In this document: one piece after another, positions 2,537 to 61,315 of the stretch | Layout of the letters: each line of letters opens with the position of its first letter | Position numbering within the stretch: the first letter of the stretch is position 1 | Assembly: GCA_963665095.1 (NCBI GenBank) | Contig: OY762069.1 | Location: forward strand, 4,640,001-4,704,000 | Origin: an uncultured Desulfobacter sp. | Lineage (GTDB): Bacteria; Desulfobacterota; Desulfobacteria; Desulfobacterales; Desulfobacteraceae | Length of the DNA: 64,000 bases | Reading direction: 5' to 3' | The notes under the pieces: generated by a model | Told to the model about the DNA's origin: nothing | The model's database searches: none | What the model saw: the letters and a program-made list of their open reading frames with translations, nothing else | Translations under genes and position numbers: made by a program

Positions 2537-3955
2537 TTGGTTCATATAAAACATTATCCATCACAAACATATCCCGGCCGTAAATGGTTAAAGACCCTTT
2601 TTTCCATCGCGGTACTGTTTACGTTGCTGCAGCCAGGCACTATGGCCCGGGCGGAATCGCTTACCATTGCCTGCTATCAGGACTACCCGCCTTATTCCCA
2701 TGTGGGGGACAAGGGGGAGCCCCAGGGCCTGCTGGTGGATTTCTGGCAGCTCTGGGCAAAAAACAATCAGGTATCCGTAACCTTTGTACCCGGCCCTTTG
2801 AGCCAGTGCCTTGAGCAGGTGAAAAGCGGTAAAGCGGATTTTATGATCGGACTTTTTAAATCCGAAGACCGTGCGGCATTCCTGGATTTTTCCAAGCCCT
2901 TCATGACTGTCCACACCAATCTTTATGTTCAACAGGACATGGAAATTGATACCATTGAGCAGATGCCTGCCGACGTTGTGGTGGGTATGGTAAAAGAGGA
3001 CTTTTCCGTCTCCTTTTTTCATTCCCGGTACCCCAAAGTGAAAATAAAAGAGTTTTCCGGGGCCCAGGCTGTGCTTGAAAATGCCATGGCCGGAAAAATA
3101 AAGGCTTTTGCCCTTGATTTTCCCAATGCGGTGGTGCTCATGGCTGAACACAATTCCCTGGAAGAGTTCAAAAACCTGAAAACATTGTATACTGAACAAC
3201 TGCGGGCCGGGGTAGCCAAGGGCAATACGCGGCTTTTAGAAAAAATTGACAAAGGGCTTGCCATGGTGCCGGACAAAGAGATCAAGGCCCTTTACAGCAA
3301 ATGGGGGATTGCACCCAAACCGCTTCTTATTCAGTACCGGGGATGGGTAATCGCGCTTGTTGTACTTCTGCTTGCCGGATGTGTCGGCTTTGGTCTTTAT
3401 GTATTCCGGCTTAAAACCCGCATTCAAAACATGAAACAGGATGATGGATCCTCTGACGTAAATGCTTGGGAAAAAATTGTCTCTGGCGGTGAGAATGACG
3501 CGGTTGAATTCAAAACCTCCCTTCGCTGGAATGTCAAAGAGGAAAAAACAGATAAGCGCCTTGAAGCGGTGGTGGTTAAAACCCTGTCTGCATTCATGAA
3601 TGCCCGGGGCGGTTCACTGTTCATCGGTATTAATGACAATGGCGAACCAGTGGGCATCGAAGCTGACTACCGGACTTTTCAGAAAAAGCCTAACCAGGAC
3701 GGCTTTATGCTCAAACTCTCCGATCTGATTTCCAAAAACCTGGGCGCCCAGAGCCATAAATACATTGTTGCCGATATTCGGGTAATGGATGGTAAAGATG
3801 TGTGCCGGATTTCGGTCAAACCCTCTGACAAGCCTGTTTTCATCACCGATCAGGGTAAAGAGGCTTTTTATATCCGGGCAGGGGCCTCATCCATTCCCCT
3901 TGGTATGAGTCAGGCCCACGAATATATAACCTCCCACTGGCAACGGAGTGTTTGA
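2537..3955 (+). CDS. Signal peptide + family-3 solute-binding domain + TM helix + cytoplasmic Schlafen/AlbA_2 domain
   Basis: DYPPYS...GLLVDFW...GKAD...LDFSKPF binding-domain motifs; TM WVIALVVLLLAGCVGFGLYVF; GGENDAVEFKTSLRW and AFMNARGGSLFIGINDNG AlbA_2 motifs. Confidence 0.8.
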   Translation: MVHIKHYPSQTYPGRKWLKTLFSIAVLFTLLQPGTMARAESLTIACYQDYPPYSHVGDKGEPQGLLVDFWQLWAKNNQVSVTFVPGPLSQCLEQVKSGKADFMIGLFKSEDRAAFLDFSKPFMTVHTNLYVQQDMEIDTIEQMPADVVVGMVKEDFSVSFFHSRYPKVKIKEFSGAQAVLENAMAGKIKAFALDFPNAVVLMAEHNSLEEFKNLKTLYTEQLRAGVAKGNTRLLEKIDKGLAMVPDKEIKALYSKWGIAPKPLLIQYRGWVIALVVLLLAGCVGFGLYVFRLKTRIQNMKQDDGSSDVNAWEKIVSGGENDAVEFKTSLRWNVKEEKTDKRLEAVVVKTLSAFMNARGGSLFIGINDNGEPVGIEADYRTFQKKPNQDGFMLKLSDLISKNLGAQSHKYIVADIRVMDGKDVCRISVKPSDKPVFITDQGKEAFYIRAGASSIPLGMSQAHEYITSHWQRSV

Positions 3956-4029
3956 ACGGCTCGAAGAGGGGCATGCGCCCCTCTTCGAGCCGTTCAAACA
4001 CCAAACACGGGGTTTTCGTTCAGGCACTA
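3948..4029. repeat. Family A palindrome (perfect 25-bp stem, 4-nt loop) plus tail CAAACACGGGGTTTTCGTTCAGGCACTA
   Basis: GTGTTTGAACGGCTCGAAGAGGGGC-ATGC-GCCCCTCTTCGAGCCGTTCAAACAC at 3948-4001; related sequences at 36953, 48108 and 61115. Confidence 0.9.
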
Positions 4030-4067
4030 GAAGCCATCTCAAAATAAATATTTTGAGATGGCTTCTA
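4028..4067. repeat. Family B palindrome (19-bp arms)
   Basis: TAGAAGCCATCTCAAAATA-AA-TATTTTGAGATGGCTTCTA; second copy at 26687-26760. Confidence 0.85.
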
Positions 4068-7484: not shown

Positions 7485-8786
7485 TTATCCATTGACCGAA
7501 AAAGTACTGTTGGGGTTGATCTCCCTCTTCCGTGAAAAGGCCCCTGCATTGATCTCAAGACCGGTGTACCGGCATTTAAAAATTATGGGGCAGGCATCAT
7601 GGTCTTCACCATGCTCACAGTACTCAATCAGATCAACCATCAGCTGCCCCACGGCCGGCCCGTTTTTATACTGGTTGCCGCTGGTCCCCACAGCCATGTA
7701 AAACCCCTTTAGACTGGACTTATCATAAATGGGGATCCAGTCATCGGACACATCGTAAAGATCGACCACGCCTTTTGGCTCATTTGGAACAGCCAGTCCC
7801 TTGACGCGTCTGGCCAGACGCATCGCTTGAGCATGCCACTGGGCTTGTGTCACAGAGCGGTTAAAGTCATCGGGATCATCCACCCACTCTTTGGGATCGC
7901 AGTCCGGGTCTTCACTGCCCACCAGGATCAAATTGCCTGACTCAGGCCGGTAATACGCCCCGGAGTCCCCGTCTCCAATATGCATGCCGAAGGCCTCAAA
8001 ATCAACCCCCTGGGGGGATGGTACATAATGAACTTCGTGGCGCAGGGGCCGGGTCCGGATATTCATGTCGTCGCACACACCGGCCATTTTATTGATTACA
8101 CCGGAGTGGGGGCCTGTGGCATTAACCACGATATCAGACAAAATTTTACGACCGTCTTCAAGAACAACACCGGTTACCCGGTCATCTTCTTTCAAAATAT
8201 CTACCACCCTTGCCTGAAACAGAAATTGAGCCCCCTTGGCTTCAGCCCCGCGCATGAGATTGTGGCAGGAGAGAACAGGATCATTAATATACCCTGTCTG
8301 CGGGGTATACATGCCCCCTTGGATATACGCATCCGGTTCCTGGAAAAAAAGATCATCCTCAGGTCTTCTGGGGGGATAGAACTTTTTCAGGTTGAAAAAC
8401 GGCACTTTTTGTTCCAGCTTTTCTTTGTCCCAGTATTCCCAGGTTATTCCGGCTCTGTCGTATCGGTCCTGGAGGGCCTGATGACTATAACTCGGGTAGG
8501 TCAGTTCAAGGGAGCCTTTATTGATGAATTTTATCAGACCTTTTTCATCTGCCGCACCAACATAATTTCCCCAATCCGCCCAGTATGCCCGTGATTCCCA
8601 GGAAAGAGCCACACCTTCATGGGTTGAATAGCTGAACCGGATGATGGCGCAGGAATTTGATGTGGACCCCGCCCCGGGTTCTCCTAAAGCATCCACTACC
8701 AGAACTGCGTATCCTTTTTTGGCAAACTCATATCCTATGGCGCATCCCATAATCCCTGCGCCAATAACAACGATATCTTTTTTCAT
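7485..8786 (-). CDS. FAD-dependent oxidoreductase (DAO / sarcosine oxidase beta-like family)
   Basis: DIVVIGAGIMG Rossmann motif, GSTSNSCAIIR, GTSGNQYKNGPAVG; GGAGG RBS before ATG 8786. Confidence 0.85.
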   Translation of the reverse strand: MKKDIVVIGAGIMGCAIGYEFAKKGYAVLVVDALGEPGAGSTSNSCAIIRFSYSTHEGVALSWESRAYWADWGNYVGAADEKGLIKFINKGSLELTYPSYSHQALQDRYDRAGITWEYWDKEKLEQKVPFFNLKKFYPPRRPEDDLFFQEPDAYIQGGMYTPQTGYINDPVLSCHNLMRGAEAKGAQFLFQARVVDILKEDDRVTGVVLEDGRKILSDIVVNATGPHSGVINKMAGVCDDMNIRTRPLRHEVHYVPSPQGVDFEAFGMHIGDGDSGAYYRPESGNLILVGSEDPDCDPKEWVDDPDDFNRSVTQAQWHAQAMRLARRVKGLAVPNEPKGVVDLYDVSDDWIPIYDKSSLKGFYMAVGTSGNQYKNGPAVGQLMVDLIEYCEHGEDHDACPIIFKCRYTGLEINAGAFSRKREINPNSTFSVNG

Positions 8787-36912: not shown

Positions 36913-36952
36913 GATATCCCCCTTTGCCAGAGTCTGCCGCATTTTATATAAT

Positions 36953-37121
36953 TAGTGTTTGAACGCAAAGTCACCCACCTAAGGCGTTACTGCACAAAGC
37001 TGCCAAATCATATAATCGGGCCTCACCTACTGGAGTATGCTCCGGTTGAAGCTTTGCTTGCGCCTTGCATATAGGTAAATTTGCGTCCAAACACCAAACA
37101 CGGGGGTTTAGTTTAGGCACT
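36953..37121 (+). mobile_element. Family A MITE-like element (about 170 bp)
   Basis: TAGTGTTTGAACGCAAAGTCACCCACC...TTGCGTCCAAACACCAAACACGGGG...AGGCACT; aligns along its length with the reverse complement of 61095-61291. Confidence 0.8.
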
Positions 37122-37382
37122 GATTAATAATGTTCCCCGTGAAACATTTTATATACAGATGAAGAACTTCATTTAGTTAAGTACCATTTTTCTTTCACAG
37201 CTTGCAATCTCAGCTGGTAAAATTTTAATAAAAAATAGAGGCCCAACAATGGAAATATCTCTGCTTAAGGTGTTTTAATCGTTAAGCAGATTAAATTTTT
37301 CTAAATATTTACTTTTATCACTTCTGTAAAATCTGATATTCTGGTATTTTCATTTTAACCAACCATCATTAGGAGTTTTGGC

Positions 37383-48107: not shown

Positions 48108-48160
48108 GTGTTTGAACGGCTCGAAGAGGAGCGCATGCTCCTCTTCGAGCCGTCCAAACC
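48108..48160. repeat. Family A palindrome, second copy
   Basis: GTGTTTGAACGGCTCGAAGAGGAGC-GCAT-GCTCCTCTTCGAGCCGTCCAAAC. Confidence 0.88.
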
Positions 48161-48197
48161 CCGAGGGGTAGTCCGAACATAGGGTTCAGTTTTATAG

Positions 48198-55024: not shown

Positions 55025-55309
55025 ATGGATTAATACCTGTCCCTTAAATTTTTATGGTAAAAAAGCGTTGTGCCAAATATTTGGAACCTGTTTAAATATC
55101 ATGAAAATGCCTGGATTATCAAGCCCGCATTACAGGGGAAACAGGGTCTTGGCACGCAAAGATTCTTAACAGTCTTTAAATTCCGCTTTGCTGAAGAAAA
55201 AGAAACAGGGTTGAAAAGCGCGCATCGTTCTTATATGTCTATATATTATTTCATAAAAGTCATGTAGTTCAACCCATAACCGTTCAATTTTCGATATGGA
55301 TTGTCATCA

Positions 55310-57712
55310 ATGAAATCAGCAGCAAAGGTTCTTGTTCAGATTTGTATAGTACTCCTGCTAGGAATCACGCCTGGATATGCCTCCCAGGATAAGGCCCGCG
55401 CCCTCAAGGTTATTTCCGAATTCAGTCATGCCGGGGGCCGCATCGGCACCTATCACGCCCTGCTTGTGGGGATCAATGACTACAAAGACCCGGAAATCCC
55501 TGATCTTGAGACCCCTGTGAGCGACGTCAATGAGATGGCATCCCTGCTGGAGAAAAAGTACGGGTTCCAGGTGAGCCGGCTCATCAACAGCAAGGCCTCA
55601 AAAGATGGTATTTATAATGCTTTAAGACACCTTGTGGGCACGGCAAAAAAAGAAGATTCCGTGCTGATTTATTATGCCGGGCACGGAGGGCACGACAAGC
55701 TTGTCGGCGGGGGATACTGGGTACCCTGGGATGCCAGGCATAGTAATACGGGATCCTATTTTGATAATGTACTGACCCAAAAACTGATTGCCGGCATGAA
55801 GGCCCGGCACGTACTTCTTATTTCCGACTCCTGTTATTCCGGCACCCTGTTCGGCAAGGCAAGGGCCCTTCCCCCGGACATCACGGACAAATACTACCTG
55901 TCGCTTTTCAACGAAAAAAGCCGGTGGGGCATGACCTCGGGCAATTTCACCCCGGTGGCGGACGGCGGTACCGACGGCCACAGCGTATTTGCCTACCAGC
56001 TGATCAAGGCGTTAAGGAAAAACAGCAGCCCCTACCTGTCTACCCAGCAATTGTACACAGGATTTGCCCATATTGTGGCCAACAACTCGGAACAGAGCCC
56101 CATGTGCCGCCCCATAAAAAACACCGGGGACCAGGGCGGTGAATTTATTTTTATCATGGCCGGGGGGCCTGGTCCTGACCCGGCTGCCCCGGCACCCCCG
56201 GCCGGACAGAAACAGGCCTGGCTGTCAGTGGAGGCCAACGTGGCCAATGCCGATGTCCTGGTGGACGGGCAGTCTGTGGGCAAAACACCCTTAAGGGATT
56301 ACGAGCTTGTCCCGGGTGATCACAGGATTACAGTGGTAAGCCGGGGCTACGACAATTATGAAAGAAACTATACCTTTCGTTCCAGCCGGTCCAGGGACGT
56401 CAACGTGGTGCTGGTCAAAGCCTTGCCGGTTAAAGGCAGTCTCGCTGTTGATACCGTGCCCGAGGATGCGGTCGTTAAAATCATGAACATCCGGGAAAAA
56501 TACCAGAGGGGAATAGAACTTGCTCCGGGCAAATACCATGTGCAGGTTCTTGCGCCTGGCTATGATACCCGAGACCTGTGGGCAGAAGTGGGCCGGGGCG
56601 AGGATAAAATCATCACCGTGCATCTGGAAAAGGCGGAAGAAAAACAGCCTGTTCCCCAAAAGCCCACAGCGTCATCCGGCAGTACCGCACCTGCCCAAAA
56701 GCCGGAAACGTCATCCGGCAGTGCCGCACCGTCTTCCGGGTCATTCAGCAGCCAGCTGGACGACCTTGCGGCCAGAAAAGCCAAATGGGAAGCCTGGCAG
56801 TCCCACATGGAAGCGGATTATAATAAACTCAAAGCCCTGGAAAACGACAACACCATCCCGGTAAAGCAGCGCAAACAGTTTTTTAAGGCCTTTTTGTCCA
56901 CCTATGGGGCGGATAATGTTTACAGCAGCCGGGATGAGGCCCTTCGCAAGGCCGCAACCTCGGCTATGGAACTGATGGACATATTGGGCAAGCCGTTTGT
57001 GGAGCCGGTAACCGGCATGGAATTCGTGTGGGTGCCGGGCGGCTGCTATCAGATGGGCGATACCTTCGGGGATGGGGAAGACAATGAAAAGCCGGTGCAT
57101 GAGGTGTGCATAGACGGCTTCTGGATGGGCAAATACGAGGTAACCCAGGCTCAGTACCGGACAGTGACGGGTCAGAACCCGTCCGAATTCAAAGGGGATC
57201 GAAATCCTGTGGAGCAGGTCAGCTGGGATGATGCTAAATCCTTTATATCCAAACTGAACCGTCAGACAGGTAAAACTTTTGCATTACCCACGGAAGCCCA
57301 GTGGGAATATGCCGCCAGAAGCGGAGGAAAGAAAGAGAAATATGCCGGGGGCGGCAATGTGGACCAGGTGGCCTGGTATAAAGGCAACAGTGGAGGGAAA
57401 ACCCATCAGGTCGGCACAAAAATTCCCAATGGCCTGGGCATATATGACATGAGCGGTAATGTCTATGAGTGGTGCGAAGATGTGTATGACCAAGGCGGAT
57501 ATAATAAACATTCAAAGAATAATCCTTTAATTACGTCCGGTTCATCCTACCGCGTGATCCGTGGTGGCAGTTGGGGCAATTACCCTAGGAACGTGCGGGC
57601 GGCCGGCCGGAGCAGGTATTCGGCTGATTTCCGCCTCAGCTTCATGGGGTTCCGCGGCAGCTACGTAGGGTTCCGCCTCTGCCTTGTCCCTGAGTCCGGC
57701 AGGAAACAGTAA
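55310..57712 (+). CDS. Exported caspase-like (peptidase C14) + PEGA + FGE-sulfatase/C-type-lectin-fold protein; probable DGR target
   Basis: Signal peptide; ALLVGINDY, YYAGHG, ISDSCYSG; PEGA-like LSVEANVANADVLVDG..VGKTP; YEVTQAQY, PVEQVSW, LPTEAQWEYAAR, YDMSGNVYEW, RGGSW...GFR. Confidence 0.9.
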   Translation: MKSAAKVLVQICIVLLLGITPGYASQDKARALKVISEFSHAGGRIGTYHALLVGINDYKDPEIPDLETPVSDVNEMASLLEKKYGFQVSRLINSKASKDGIYNALRHLVGTAKKEDSVLIYYAGHGGHDKLVGGGYWVPWDARHSNTGSYFDNVLTQKLIAGMKARHVLLISDSCYSGTLFGKARALPPDITDKYYLSLFNEKSRWGMTSGNFTPVADGGTDGHSVFAYQLIKALRKNSSPYLSTQQLYTGFAHIVANNSEQSPMCRPIKNTGDQGGEFIFIMAGGPGPDPAAPAPPAGQKQAWLSVEANVANADVLVDGQSVGKTPLRDYELVPGDHRITVVSRGYDNYERNYTFRSSRSRDVNVVLVKALPVKGSLAVDTVPEDAVVKIMNIREKYQRGIELAPGKYHVQVLAPGYDTRDLWAEVGRGEDKIITVHLEKAEEKQPVPQKPTASSGSTAPAQKPETSSGSAAPSSGSFSSQLDDLAARKAKWEAWQSHMEADYNKLKALENDNTIPVKQRKQFFKAFLSTYGADNVYSSRDEALRKAATSAMELMDILGKPFVEPVTGMEFVWVPGGCYQMGDTFGDGEDNEKPVHEVCIDGFWMGKYEVTQAQYRTVTGQNPSEFKGDRNPVEQVSWDDAKSFISKLNRQTGKTFALPTEAQWEYAARSGGKKEKYAGGGNVDQVAWYKGNSGGKTHQVGTKIPNGLGIYDMSGNVYEWCEDVYDQGGYNKHSKNNPLITSGSSYRVIRGGSWGNYPRNVRAAGRSRYSADFRLSFMGFRGSYVGFRLCLVPESGRKQ
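57545..57690 (+). other. Putative DGR variable region (VR)
   Basis: N-N-pyrimidine codons at the positions where DGR templates carry AAY (RGGSW-NNN...RNNNIGFR); internal 21-nt duplication. Confidence 0.7.
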
Positions 57713-57726
57713 CAGCCGCGAAGCGA

Positions 57727-57807
57727 CAGGGGCCTATGATCCGGCAGGGGCGCATGGCCACGAAGGCGGCAGCCGTGGCCATGCCGCCTGCCGGATCATA
57801 GGCCCTG
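57727..57807. repeat. Long GC-rich inverted repeat immediately after the VR gene
   Basis: GGGCCTATGATCCGGCAGG/CCTGCCGGATCATAGGCCC (19 bp) plus GCATGGCCACG/CGTGGCCATGC (11 bp), 11-nt loop, no T tail. Confidence 0.85.
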
Positions 57808-57816
57808 GGAGGGTGG

Positions 57817-57897
57817 TGGGGTCACATCTTGATCAGTGATTTAATAACTCTGTTTCATACTCAACCCCGACTAATCACTAATCAAGATGTGACCCCA
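57817..57897. repeat. REP/MITE-like inverted repeat (25-bp arms, one mismatch)
   Basis: TGGGGTCACATCTTGATCAGTGATT ... AATCACTAATCAAGATGTGACCCCA. Confidence 0.8.
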
Positions 57898-58169: not shown

Positions 58170-61067
58170 ATGACCCAAGACCCTTTAGACCTGTCAATTG
58201 ACCGCTCTTTTACTGACTTAAGCCAGTCACTCAGGCAGACGTTATCCTGTCGTGTTGAAGATTTTTTAAACGCCGCAGGTATAGAAGGCCTCAGCGGACT
58301 GCCGGTAAATTCTGAAGAATTTTTAAAGGTGATGCTGTTCAGCCCTTTTGTTGCCGAGCACATCACTGCCTCCCCGTCAATCGTTGACCGCCTTGGAAAC
58401 AGCGGTGATCTCGAAAAGAGGTACAATCCGGCCACCTTGAAGGATAAACTGGATCTCTTTGCAAAGGAAATCAGGGATATTGCCGGGGTAAAATCGTGTA
58501 TGCTTGAATTCAAAATTTATGAAGTCATACGCATTGCCTGGCGGGATCTCACCGGTGCGGCACCCTTGGCAGAAACCATGGCGGATCTGTCCAATCTGGC
58601 CTGTGCCTGCATAAGCTTTGGATTTCAACGGTTATACCCGGTTCTGACGGAAAAATGGGGAACGCCTTGTGACCATCTGGGAAACGCCCAGAATATTGTG
58701 GTGCTGGGCATGGGAAAACTCGGCGCAGGCGAGCTCAATTTTTCTTCGGACATTGACCTTATTTTTGTTTATCCAAAGGAAGGTCACACCACCGGCGACA
58801 GATCCATATCCAATGATGAGTTCTTCACAAAATTGTGCCGGGAATTTATCAAGCTGTTTTCAACGAGCAACGGGGCCCATTTTTACCGTGTGGATACCCG
58901 CCTGCGACCCTTTGGGGAGAGTGGGCCCCTGGTCATGGATGCGTCGGCCTTTGAGCACTATTACCAGTCCCAGGGCCGGGAGTGGGAGCGATATGCCATG
59001 ATCAAGGCGGCGCCGGTGGCAGGTGACCTGCCCGCCGGCCGGGATATTCTTGACTCCCTGCACCCCTTTGTTTTCCGCAGATATCTGGATTACGGGTCCT
59101 TTGATTCATTCAGGGATATGAAACAGCGTATTGCCCTTCAGGTGAAAAGCGCAAAGCTGAAAAATAATATTAAAATAGGTGCCGGCGGCATCCGGGAGAT
59201 TGAGTTTTTCGGCCAGCTGTTCCAGCTCATCCGGGGCGGGGTGGAACCGGCCCTGCGGGCCAGGCCCGTTCTGACAGTTCTGGATCTGCTGGTGGAAAAG
59301 GGGTGTATCGACGCAAAGGTATGCGAAGAACTTAAACAGGCATATTATTTCCTGCGCCGTGTGGAAAACCGCCTTCAGGAATACCAGGACCGCCAGACCC
59401 ATGACATCCCTGAAGATCCGGTGCAAAGGAAGATCCTTGCTCTGTCCATGGGATATACCAACGAACCGGCATTTTATGCTGAACTTTCCAGGGTTCAGGG
59501 CATTGTACATAAACATTTTTCAAGGCTTCTGGTGGCTCAGGATGAGGAGGAGACGGATAAAAGCGGCCAGGATCTGAAACAAATCTGGACCAGCATTACG
59601 GATCCCCAGTTTCATATTCAGGATATGTCCATTTCCGGGTTTAATGATCCGGACCAGGTGGTGCGCATCCTTAAGACACTTGCCACCCATCCGCACACAC
59701 GCCAGCTCTCCCAGGCCGGCCGCAATAAACTGGCCCGCCTGGTACCCCTTCTGATTAAAAAGGCAGGCCAGCACCCGGATGCCGATGCCGTCATCGCGCG
59801 TCTGTCTGATCTGGTGGCCACCATTGAGCGTCGCACCTGTTATCTTTCTTTACTCATTGAAAACAAAGGGGCGTTGGATACCCTGATTATTCTGGCCCGT
59901 AAAAGTCCCTGGATTATTACCTTTTTAAGTCAGCATCCTGTGCTTTTAGATGAACTTATGCACCCTGCAACACTCTATTCACCTCCCAAGCGGGAGATGC
60001 TTGAAAAGGAGATGGAGACAAGGATGGCCCGGGTATCTGGTGAAGACCTGGAATATCTGCTGGAAGAGCTTAACATCTTCCGTCAGATCAATACCCTTCG
60101 GGTGGCGGCGGCCGATGTATCAGGCAACTATCCGCTGATGAAGGTGAGCGATCATCTCACCTGGATCGCTGAAACAGTTATGGGCCAGATCCTCTCTTCA
60201 TCCTGGCAGATCGTGACCGAAAAATACGGCAGACCCCCGGGTATTGCCGAATCAGGCTTTAAGGGGTGCGGTTTTGCCGCCATCGCCTATGGCAAGGTCG
60301 GGGGCCTGGAGATGGGGTATAAGTCGGATCTCGACCTGGTGTTTCTTTTTGATGCAGAATCCGGGTACACCACCGGGACGGACCGGTCCATTGATACGGC
60401 CAGATTTTATTCCAACCTTGGCCAGCGCATCATCCATGCCCTGACCATGCATACCGCAGCCGGTACACTTTATGGTGCGGACATGCGGCTTCGACCCGGA
60501 GGGGAGTCCGGCACCATTGTGTCCCATATTGAATCCTATGAAGAGTATCTTAAAAACAATGCATGGACCTTTGAGCACCAGGCCCTGATCCGGGCCCGGC
60601 CTGTGGCCGGAGATCCCTTACTGTTCAGGCGGTTTGACACCATCCGTAAAAAAATTCTGACCCTTAAAAGGGATGCGCAGACCTTAAAAACCGAAGTGGG
60701 GGAAATGCGGGAGAAAATGCGGGCTCAGCGGTTAAAGTACGAACCCGGACTATTTAATCTGAAGCAGGGCCGGGGAGGCATTGTGGATATTGAATTTTTT
60801 GTTCAGTATATGGTGCTGCGCCATGCTGCCGACCATCCCGATGTTGTGGAATGGACGGATAATATCCGGCTGCTGGAGGCCTTAAGCGTGGACTCCCTGA
60901 TATCCGGCGAAGACAGCGGTGCACTTCAGAGCGCCTATGTGACCATGAGAAAGGCCATACACCGCCTGACCCTTCAGGAGCTTCCCGCCATTGTGACAGA
61001 AGACCAGTTTCGCGATGCAGCCGCCGATGTGGCCCGGATTTACGATGGGGCATTGGGTTCTGATTAA
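58170..61067 (+). CDS. glnE: Bifunctional glutamine synthetase adenylyltransferase / adenylyl-removing enzyme
   Basis: GMGKLGAGELNFSSDIDL, RVDTRLRPFG, GREWERYAMIK, YGKVGGLEMGYKSDLDL, KQGRGGIVDIEF. Confidence 0.96.
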   Translation: MTQDPLDLSIDRSFTDLSQSLRQTLSCRVEDFLNAAGIEGLSGLPVNSEEFLKVMLFSPFVAEHITASPSIVDRLGNSGDLEKRYNPATLKDKLDLFAKEIRDIAGVKSCMLEFKIYEVIRIAWRDLTGAAPLAETMADLSNLACACISFGFQRLYPVLTEKWGTPCDHLGNAQNIVVLGMGKLGAGELNFSSDIDLIFVYPKEGHTTGDRSISNDEFFTKLCREFIKLFSTSNGAHFYRVDTRLRPFGESGPLVMDASAFEHYYQSQGREWERYAMIKAAPVAGDLPAGRDILDSLHPFVFRRYLDYGSFDSFRDMKQRIALQVKSAKLKNNIKIGAGGIREIEFFGQLFQLIRGGVEPALRARPVLTVLDLLVEKGCIDAKVCEELKQAYYFLRRVENRLQEYQDRQTHDIPEDPVQRKILALSMGYTNEPAFYAELSRVQGIVHKHFSRLLVAQDEEETDKSGQDLKQIWTSITDPQFHIQDMSISGFNDPDQVVRILKTLATHPHTRQLSQAGRNKLARLVPLLIKKAGQHPDADAVIARLSDLVATIERRTCYLSLLIENKGALDTLIILARKSPWIITFLSQHPVLLDELMHPATLYSPPKREMLEKEMETRMARVSGEDLEYLLEELNIFRQINTLRVAAADVSGNYPLMKVSDHLTWIAETVMGQILSSSWQIVTEKYGRPPGIAESGFKGCGFAAIAYGKVGGLEMGYKSDLDLVFLFDAESGYTTGTDRSIDTARFYSNLGQRIIHALTMHTAAGTLYGADMRLRPGGESGTIVSHIESYEEYLKNNAWTFEHQALIRARPVAGDPLLFRRFDTIRKKILTLKRDAQTLKTEVGEMREKMRAQRLKYEPGLFNLKQGRGGIVDIEFFVQYMVLRHAADHPDVVEWTDNIRLLEALSVDSLISGEDSGALQSAYVTMRKAIHRLTLQELPAIVTEDQFRDAAADVARIYDGALGSD

Positions 61068-61094: not shown

Positions 61095-61291
61095 TGTGCC
61101 GGAAGAAACACCACGTGTTTGGTGTTTGAACGAAAACCCAGTGTTTGGGTGTTTGAACGCAAAGTTGCCCAGATGCAAGGCGCAAGCAAAGCTGCAACCT
61201 CAAGCGTACTTCAGTACGTGAGACCCGATTATATGTTTTGGCAGCTTTGTGCAGCAACGCCGCAGGTGGGTGACTTTTCGTTCAAACACTA
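61095..61291 (-). mobile_element. Family A MITE-like element, inverted, with a duplicated terminal unit
   Basis: Reverse complement matches 36953-37121; GTGTTTG(G)GTGTTTGAACG occurs twice (61115 and 61141). Confidence 0.8.
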
Positions 61292-61315
61292 TTTACGCTT
61301 AACCGGGGAGGAGAG

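Follow-up and report, generated by a model that had tools for sequence, protein, structure and literature searches.

A 21-nt unit doubled in tandem, its two copies mutated separately, within the variable repeat of an apparently orphaned DGR target gene of Desulfobacter

One question that is raised by the window analyzed here, a 64,000-nucleotide stretch of the genome of an uncultured Desulfobacter sp., is how the variable repeat of a diversity-generating retroelement (DGR) target gene came to hold the same 21-nt unit twice in tandem, with different mutations in each copy. The gene (55310..57712, + strand) is an open reading frame of 800 amino acids, or 803 from an alternative TTG start at 55301. 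Pfam predicts a caspase domain (PF00656) followed by a PEGA domain (PF08308) and a C-terminal FGE-sulfatase domain with a C-type lectin fold (PF03781, residues 574-785), and the best solved relative is the Treponema denticola variable protein TvpA (2y3c, E 3e-29). The downstream neighbor is glnE, which starts at 58170 according to Pfam, and the other neighbor is presumably carA. The variable repeat with its invariant 3' tail (57553..57700, + strand, approximate ends) lies at the 3' end of the C-type-lectin-fold domain and aligns to the templates of two relatives, one from the same genus (G070) and one from the same family (G154). Within it, copy 1 of the unit (57629..57649, + strand) reads TTC CGC CTC AGC TTC ATG GGG and copy 2 (57650..57670, + strand), which adjoins the tail, reads TTC CGC GGC AGC TAC GTA GGG. 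TTCCGC then appears once more at 57671-57676, right after copy 2, as the start of the invariant tail FRLC (57671..57682, + strand), which the window repeat has in common with the relatives' templates. The preliminary description of this DNA had reported two units plus TTCCGC at these positions, encoding FRLSFMG-FRGSYVG-FR, and both the sequence and the reading frame bear this out, with FRLSFMG-FRGSYVG-FRL in frame at the doubled end. The copies differ at five of 21 positions (unit positions 7, 8, 14, 16 and 18), four of these being codon positions 1-2.

The 21-nt in-frame duplication is real and is not an assembly merge. Four runs from four studies, out of 16 runs listed (none of them an RNA dataset), were compared as contigs and not as raw reads. 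In run X1, possibly the source sample, one contig crosses 56500-57846 with no differences at a depth of 11, and in run X5, from another study, one contig crosses 57287-57702, also with no differences, at a depth of 112; neither run has variants listed in the repeat, in contigs that drop rare variants. The other two runs lack the extra unit: X9 (56500-57846) shows 26 differences plus a 21-nt gap and X13 (57422-57725), at a depth of 2, shows 28 differences plus a 21-nt gap. Of the four proteins in the 90% cluster, two have 800 aa and end in the same doubled segment, and the other two have 793 aa. P0002, which comes from a second assembly, has the same doubled end and three residue changes elsewhere, so that the repeat is common to P0001 and P0002 and unchanged, while the 793-aa proteins P0003 and P0004 are without the 21 nt and have single-unit ends that differ from each other. 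The changes listed for X9 translate to P0003; the two are thus one allele and are counted once. Because the X1 and X5 contigs and P0002 carry the duplication and X9, X13, P0003 and P0004 do not, it is inherited in at least two strains and missing from close sisters. A merge of two alleles by the assembler, the objection that the preliminary description raised against its own observation, is contradicted by the unbroken X1 and X5 contigs and by P0002. When the last 56 residues served as query in a protein search, the protein's own cluster was the only one to come up among 59 candidates of 440-1400 aa, and neither an intermediate with two identical copies nor a single-unit TTC CGC CTC allele was seen in the four runs (as contigs) and the four cluster members. 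P0004 also shows a cluster of changes at residues 629-733, possibly due to recombination.

If the doubling is real, the next question is what mutated the copies. A DNA search matched nine of 161 genomes of the family, the window's own included, and two of the relatives, G070 and G154, possess intact target-hairpin-HRDC-RT-template cassettes with single-unit templates. The G154 template reads AAC CGA AAC AGT AAC ATA GGG TTC CGC CTC, and the last codon of the G070 unit is ATG, where the sister alleles P0003 and P0004 have Ile. The adenine test rests on these relatives' templates because the cognate template is gone from this genome, and the homologous templates have some non-A differences. The claim that all differences between the copies fall on template adenines holds in full against G154 (five of five) but for only four of five against G070, owing to its ATG codon. 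The chance that five of five differences would fall on 9 adenines in 21 positions is 0.006. The comparison of X9 with the window gives a similar picture, since at 57581-57641 all 14 listed differences fall on adenines of both homologous, not cognate, templates (p <1e-7; 21 of the 26 differences are listed), and the preceding ~1050 coding nt contain six listed differences. As a separate matter, all six of the listed upstream coding differences (56675-57404) alter a residue, too few for significance.

From these alignments we read the segment as a DGR variable repeat that was written from a template with one unit and varied at its adenines, and since the five differences between the copies sit on template adenines, both copies almost certainly derive from one template unit through adenine-specific mutagenesis, that is, mutagenic retrohoming. 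The suggestion that the segment is a footprint of retrohoming is thus upheld by the homologous templates and the X9 differences. The template that had been proposed, AAC CGC AAC AAC AAC ATA, was right in being a single unit, as it is in G070 and G154, but at its fourth codon both homologous templates have AGT and all four sister units encode Ser, and the cognate template with which it was to be compared is missing from the genome. An ordinary duplication followed by drift, which together with an assembly merge we regard as scarcely credible, would fit a genome that has no DGR machinery and a comparison that was made by contigs rather than raw reads. Yet it would have to place five changes in 21 nt, against six listed in ~1050 coding nt to the sister strain, and all five on adenine sites; the early judgement that drift is improbable stands, and the unbroken contigs in two studies and the second assembly speak against a merge as noted above.

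Another question regards the machinery itself. No cognate template was found by blastn, by an adenine-tolerant scan or with the relatives' cassettes and template motifs in this genome, which is 97% complete and in one contig, plasmids being possible. Likewise, no DGR-type RT was detected: the 13 RVT_1 matches are group II intron-like in sequence, five of the six scanned RVT_1 proteins pass TIGR04416 and the sixth is a partial match to it, and DGR RT queries reach at most 30% identity over long matches to the own genome. It also has no bAvd, and the Avd-type DGRs of the genus (bAvd match in 5 of 25 genomes) offer, among the matches listed, no template for the window repeat. Motif scans of contig collections gave three unrelated matches in genome_contigs, none in viral_contigs and three in metagenome_contigs, two of the latter being related single-unit targets with no RT on the contig. 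On this evidence the gene appears to be an orphan, behaving as a DGR target but lying outside any complete DGR in this genome. Behind its stop codon lies a long GC-rich hairpin (57730..57805, + strand), the homologue of one that in G070 separates the target from the HRDC gene; its energy is -43 kcal/mol in both, and in the two-sequence alignment 7 of 31 pairs are changed on both sides. A separate inverted repeat (57817..57897, no strand assigned) occupies the place where the G070 cassette runs into the HRDC gene, and no DGR gene follows it. Several intergenic palindromic repeats recur across the window (3948-4067, 36949-37124, 48108-48162, 57817-57897 and 61096-61295) and are, we assume from their look, REP-like.

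Two HRDC genes exist in the genome, both cut at about residue 82-93. One of them, at C1:5024797, encodes a protein that is 80% identical to the product of the G070 gene. It belongs to what looks like a collapsed DGR locus (L188:966-1590; G000 C1:5024466-5025090), in which ~190 nt of the start of a paralogous target, 86% identical to the start of the window gene, are joined to the end of a hairpin arm and are followed by the truncated HRDC gene and then by a gene pair that we take to be toxin-antitoxin-like. The other, at C1:3224689, lies behind a paralogous target of another repeat family (L189; G000 C1:3224429-3226922, minus strand). This is a full paralogue of the window gene, with ~80% DNA identity over the 5' 1.4 kb, and it ends in the different repeat family, followed by a hairpin and the second truncated HRDC gene. 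A short gene with the same repeat type is found at C1:6448812-6449597, and together with the paralogue it appears to form a second orphaned DGR family. The same 97-aa HRDC truncation is also present on a contig that is apparently that of P0003, and because the truncation is thus apparently common to the P0003 strain, the collapse of the HRDC locus is probably older than the split of these strains. The cassette behind the different alleles of the sister strains may then have been another copy, or these alleles may predate the collapse.

How, then, did the unit double? The start of copy 1 (57629..57640, + strand) reads TTCCGCCTCAGC and the invariant tail reads TTCCGCCTCTGC; the two match at 11 of 12 bases, nine of them exact, a likeness that the preliminary description had missed. 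In the single-unit repeats of relatives the longest in-register match to the tail is at most 6 in 46 of 46 and exceeds 6 in none (0/46), although these comparison repeats are mutually related and several have a common template. Because copy 1 matches the tail over nine exact bases and the relatives over six at most, the option that we favor, for which the chances seem to us about even, is a slippage duplication followed by a second, partial retrohoming that rewrote only the 3' copy of a target now orphaned. In the first step retrohoming would have changed both AAC codons with which the unit starts, one to TTC and the other to CTC, creating TTCCGCCTCAGC as an 11/12 copy of TTCCGCCTCTGC, the tail 21 nt downstream. 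Replication slippage between this tail-like start and the tail would then have doubled the 21 nt. A later cDNA, anchored at the 3' tail, would have rewritten the tail-side copy alone (CTC to GGC, TTC to TAC and ATG to GTA) and lost register at the boundary between the copies, leaving copy 1 behind as an older, frozen fossil beside a rewritten copy 2. With template and RT now missing, the allele would have been passed on unchanged.

The order of these steps follows from the sequence of copy 2. A single misaligned crossover on the nine-base match would put CTC in copy 2, where GGC is found. Provided that the match is causal, the unit would thus have been duplicated first, on the same molecule, and the tail-side copy would have been rewritten later. 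It has been proposed that the cDNA pairs with a single-stranded target at the fork (PMC12875486, accessible text). That repeats of this DGR class can slip is shown by the Prosthecochloris aestuarii template, with its microhomology-bounded loss of 24 nt. Against slippage first, it needs two rare events where its rival needs one, a full-length cDNA would have erased the duplication, and the CTC match may be a 1-in-20 coincidence. In the template-repeat pairs of relatives (50 pairs, of which 5 with more than 6 non-adenine mismatches were dropped and the 39 without indels were used), AAY became TT in 38 of 399 codons and CT in 20 of 399, a joint frequency of 0.005, and at the two unit-start positions of the relatives' repeats TT occurs in 5 of 46 and CT in 2 of 46.

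A possible, though in our view somewhat unlikely, alternative is a single step close to the one first suggested for this locus, in which an old allele already began with TTC CGC and the incoming cDNA, poorly paired across five mismatches, re-annealed by its mutated 3' end 21 nt off, at the TTCCGC of the tail, so that extension recopied the old unit and both variants were kept. Such an event would account at once for the adenine-only differences and for the TTC of copy 1, and its predicted product is exactly the sequence observed. In BPP-1, cDNA has been found to integrate at cryptic 5' sites when the variable repeat was truncated (Guo et al., 2011, PMC3240598, in its accessible part). However, homology at the junction extends over no more than 6 bp, short of the 8 bp given there as sufficient for 5' cDNA integration, a figure that the accessible text takes from a 2008 paper. 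The mis-registered integration on TTCCGC thus explains only six of the nine exact bases and leaves the CTC of copy 1 as a coincidence (20/399 codons; 2/46 at the site). Moreover, alleles that start with TT (5 of 46 relatives' repeats) and five normal-length ends with a double GFR exist, none of them duplicated. We therefore rank slippage first above the single mis-registered integration, by judgements that concern one event.

The BPP-1 case resembles ours in that cDNA joins the target at non-standard sites on short identity, and differs in that the target was engineered and truncated, at least 8 bp were sufficient and, in the accessible part of that paper, no tandem duplication is described. 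Closer in kind are the length changes surveyed by Wu et al. (2018, PMC5758913), who, according to the accessible text, found indels in 25 of 372 DGRs, 14 of them in frame and 74% next to AAC, and proposed RT slippage. Our case is like these as an in-frame length change within the AAC-rich part of a variable repeat and unlike them in that a whole unit of 21 nt is repeated in tandem and each copy has its own mutations. The accessible part of their supplement, the alignment file and Figure 4D lying outside the search, has no mention of 9, 12, 15, 18 or 21 bp.

Following that proposal, the RT may have moved back by 21 nt along the template RNA and transcribed the unit in two passes, each with its own mutations, with the long cDNA integrated whole. 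We consider this improbable. It has the merit of being a published route to indels at AAC runs (PMC5758913; PMC12875486; both in accessible part), it requires one event in which the separate mutation of the copies is automatic, and the indel adjoins AAC and is a multiple of 3, its 21 nt spanning three AAY codons of the homologous templates. But cDNA synthesis proceeds from the tail, and a match to the tail would therefore be expected in copy 2, next to it, where GGC stands instead; that copy 1 has both TTC and CTC would then be a coincidence (0.005), and the in-frame indels of relatives are only 3 or 6 nt. Among 45 template-repeat pairs, six have indels (-6, +6, +3, +1, +1 and -1), none of them a whole unit. 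Beside an intact cassette in G070 there is also a target with a 1-nt insertion that shifts the frame within the variable repeat (L096:10050-10160), which may be a slip of the DGR or an assembly error. In G002, the RT genes of two DGR cassettes (L103:2573-3064; L101:7147 and 8042-8764) are shortened internally, one of these genes being fused to the HRDC start; one variable repeat there is without 6 nt.

A fourth reading, which appears very improbable, is that the lost template itself had two units, or that two alleles of sister strains underwent out-of-register recombination. The genome is without the cognate template, templates can change length, and residue sharing in P0001-P0004 suggests recombination among strains. 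Yet the sister alleles (P0003/X9, P0004 and X13) are single-unit, the listed templates of relatives read as single units, and both versions need a junction of 4-6 bases that leaves the nine-base match unexplained. A change of template length was seen in Prosthecochloris aestuarii pPAES01, a DGR that is likewise composed of HRDC and FGE-sulfatase genes and whose variable repeats exceed the template in length by whole codons, with differences of 24 and 30 bp (Wu et al., 2018, Supplementary Table 1, row 95, accessible part). There both targets have an extra TCG CCC GGC segment that is missing from the template, a pattern of deletion in the template rather than of duplication in the target. The template apparently lost 24 nt between short repeats (L187; NC_011061.1:45590-45740), which would place the published length difference in the template, and this system was rejected as a precedent for the duplication.

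The preliminary description had also pointed to two GFR motifs where the fold normally has one, but such a pair does not in itself indicate a duplication. The double-GFR pattern, which skips tails without Leu or Phe after GFR, has 23 matches in 400 other genomes of the class, and five of these are FGE-sulfatase ends, all of normal length, with two GFR seven residues apart and the extra one made by substitution; the motif was therefore rejected as a duplication marker. One further match is a chance one, to a non-coding tandem array of a 21-nt unit (L190; G428 C30). Shorter doublings were observed elsewhere: in G140 an invariant tail has 6 nt repeated in tandem without any difference (GFRLRLL; L162:9001), and at the protein level, among 242 domain ends, there are two apparent doublings, GWIDG SWIDG in P0015 (~539-553, five residues) and GSWHNW GSWHPK in P0110 (~283-300, six residues), both with diverged copies. 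The two protein doublings lie at the start of the GGSW motif and are candidates for the same kind of event.

The effect on the protein can be suggested from the domain alignment. In 55 aligned domains (among the alignment rows listed) the strand that follows GFR has a Leu with a conservation of at least 90%, and because in the window protein a Leu follows only the second GFR, the GFR-L strand is most likely kept as the last strand and the seven extra residues would lengthen the variable loop.

In the literature, the system closest to the window gene is that of the HRDC-containing DGRs with CLec1/FGE-sulfatase targets (Architecture C; TvpA), which, in the accessible part of Wu et al. (2018, PMC5758913), share the C-terminal FGE-sulfatase variable domain and adenine-specific variation. 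The hairpin behind the stop and, in relatives, the HRDC-RT-template cassette are also alike, whereas the window genome is without template, RT and intact accessory gene, the target being an apparent orphan. DGR loci that are incomplete have been described, as have remote targets and caspase-type domains in their vicinity (PMC10907252, accessible text). A whole-unit tandem duplication with separately mutated copies was described nowhere in the open-access literature searched, the phrase 'tandem duplication' occurs in no DGR paper among the matches listed, and no such duplication is found in the accessible parts of 10.1101/2025.03.24.644984, 10.1101/2024.11.15.621889, PMC10907252 and 10.64898/2026.07.21.739853. 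The view that the locus reveals a route to length variation in variable repeats stands in that seven residues were gained, but length variation as such was already published (PMC5758913, in its accessible part). Length change in variable repeats is thus known, and the doubling of a whole unit with separate mutation of its copies is apparently new, a one-off in a dead system.

The joining of mutated cDNA to its target is still poorly understood and has been called 'mysterious' (PMC12875486, accessible text). The window allele pins one junction to about six bases, and leaves three models with different predictions that can be tested in reconstituted E. coli systems. A more general proposal, which we hold to be doubtful, is that DGR mutagenesis sometimes writes a copy of the tail into its own repeat and that the repeat can, through this microhomology, recurrently gain entire template units. 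If it were true, the tail-side copy would stay rewritable and the other would be frozen, which would give a recurrent route to longer binding loops. Such alleles would also be a natural marker of the junction between the cDNA 3' end and the chromosome, with P0015 and P0110 as further cases. For the Desulfobacter strains themselves, this was one event, in a genome from which the machinery has since been lost, and by it the variable repeat gained seven residues in frame that persist in at least two strains.
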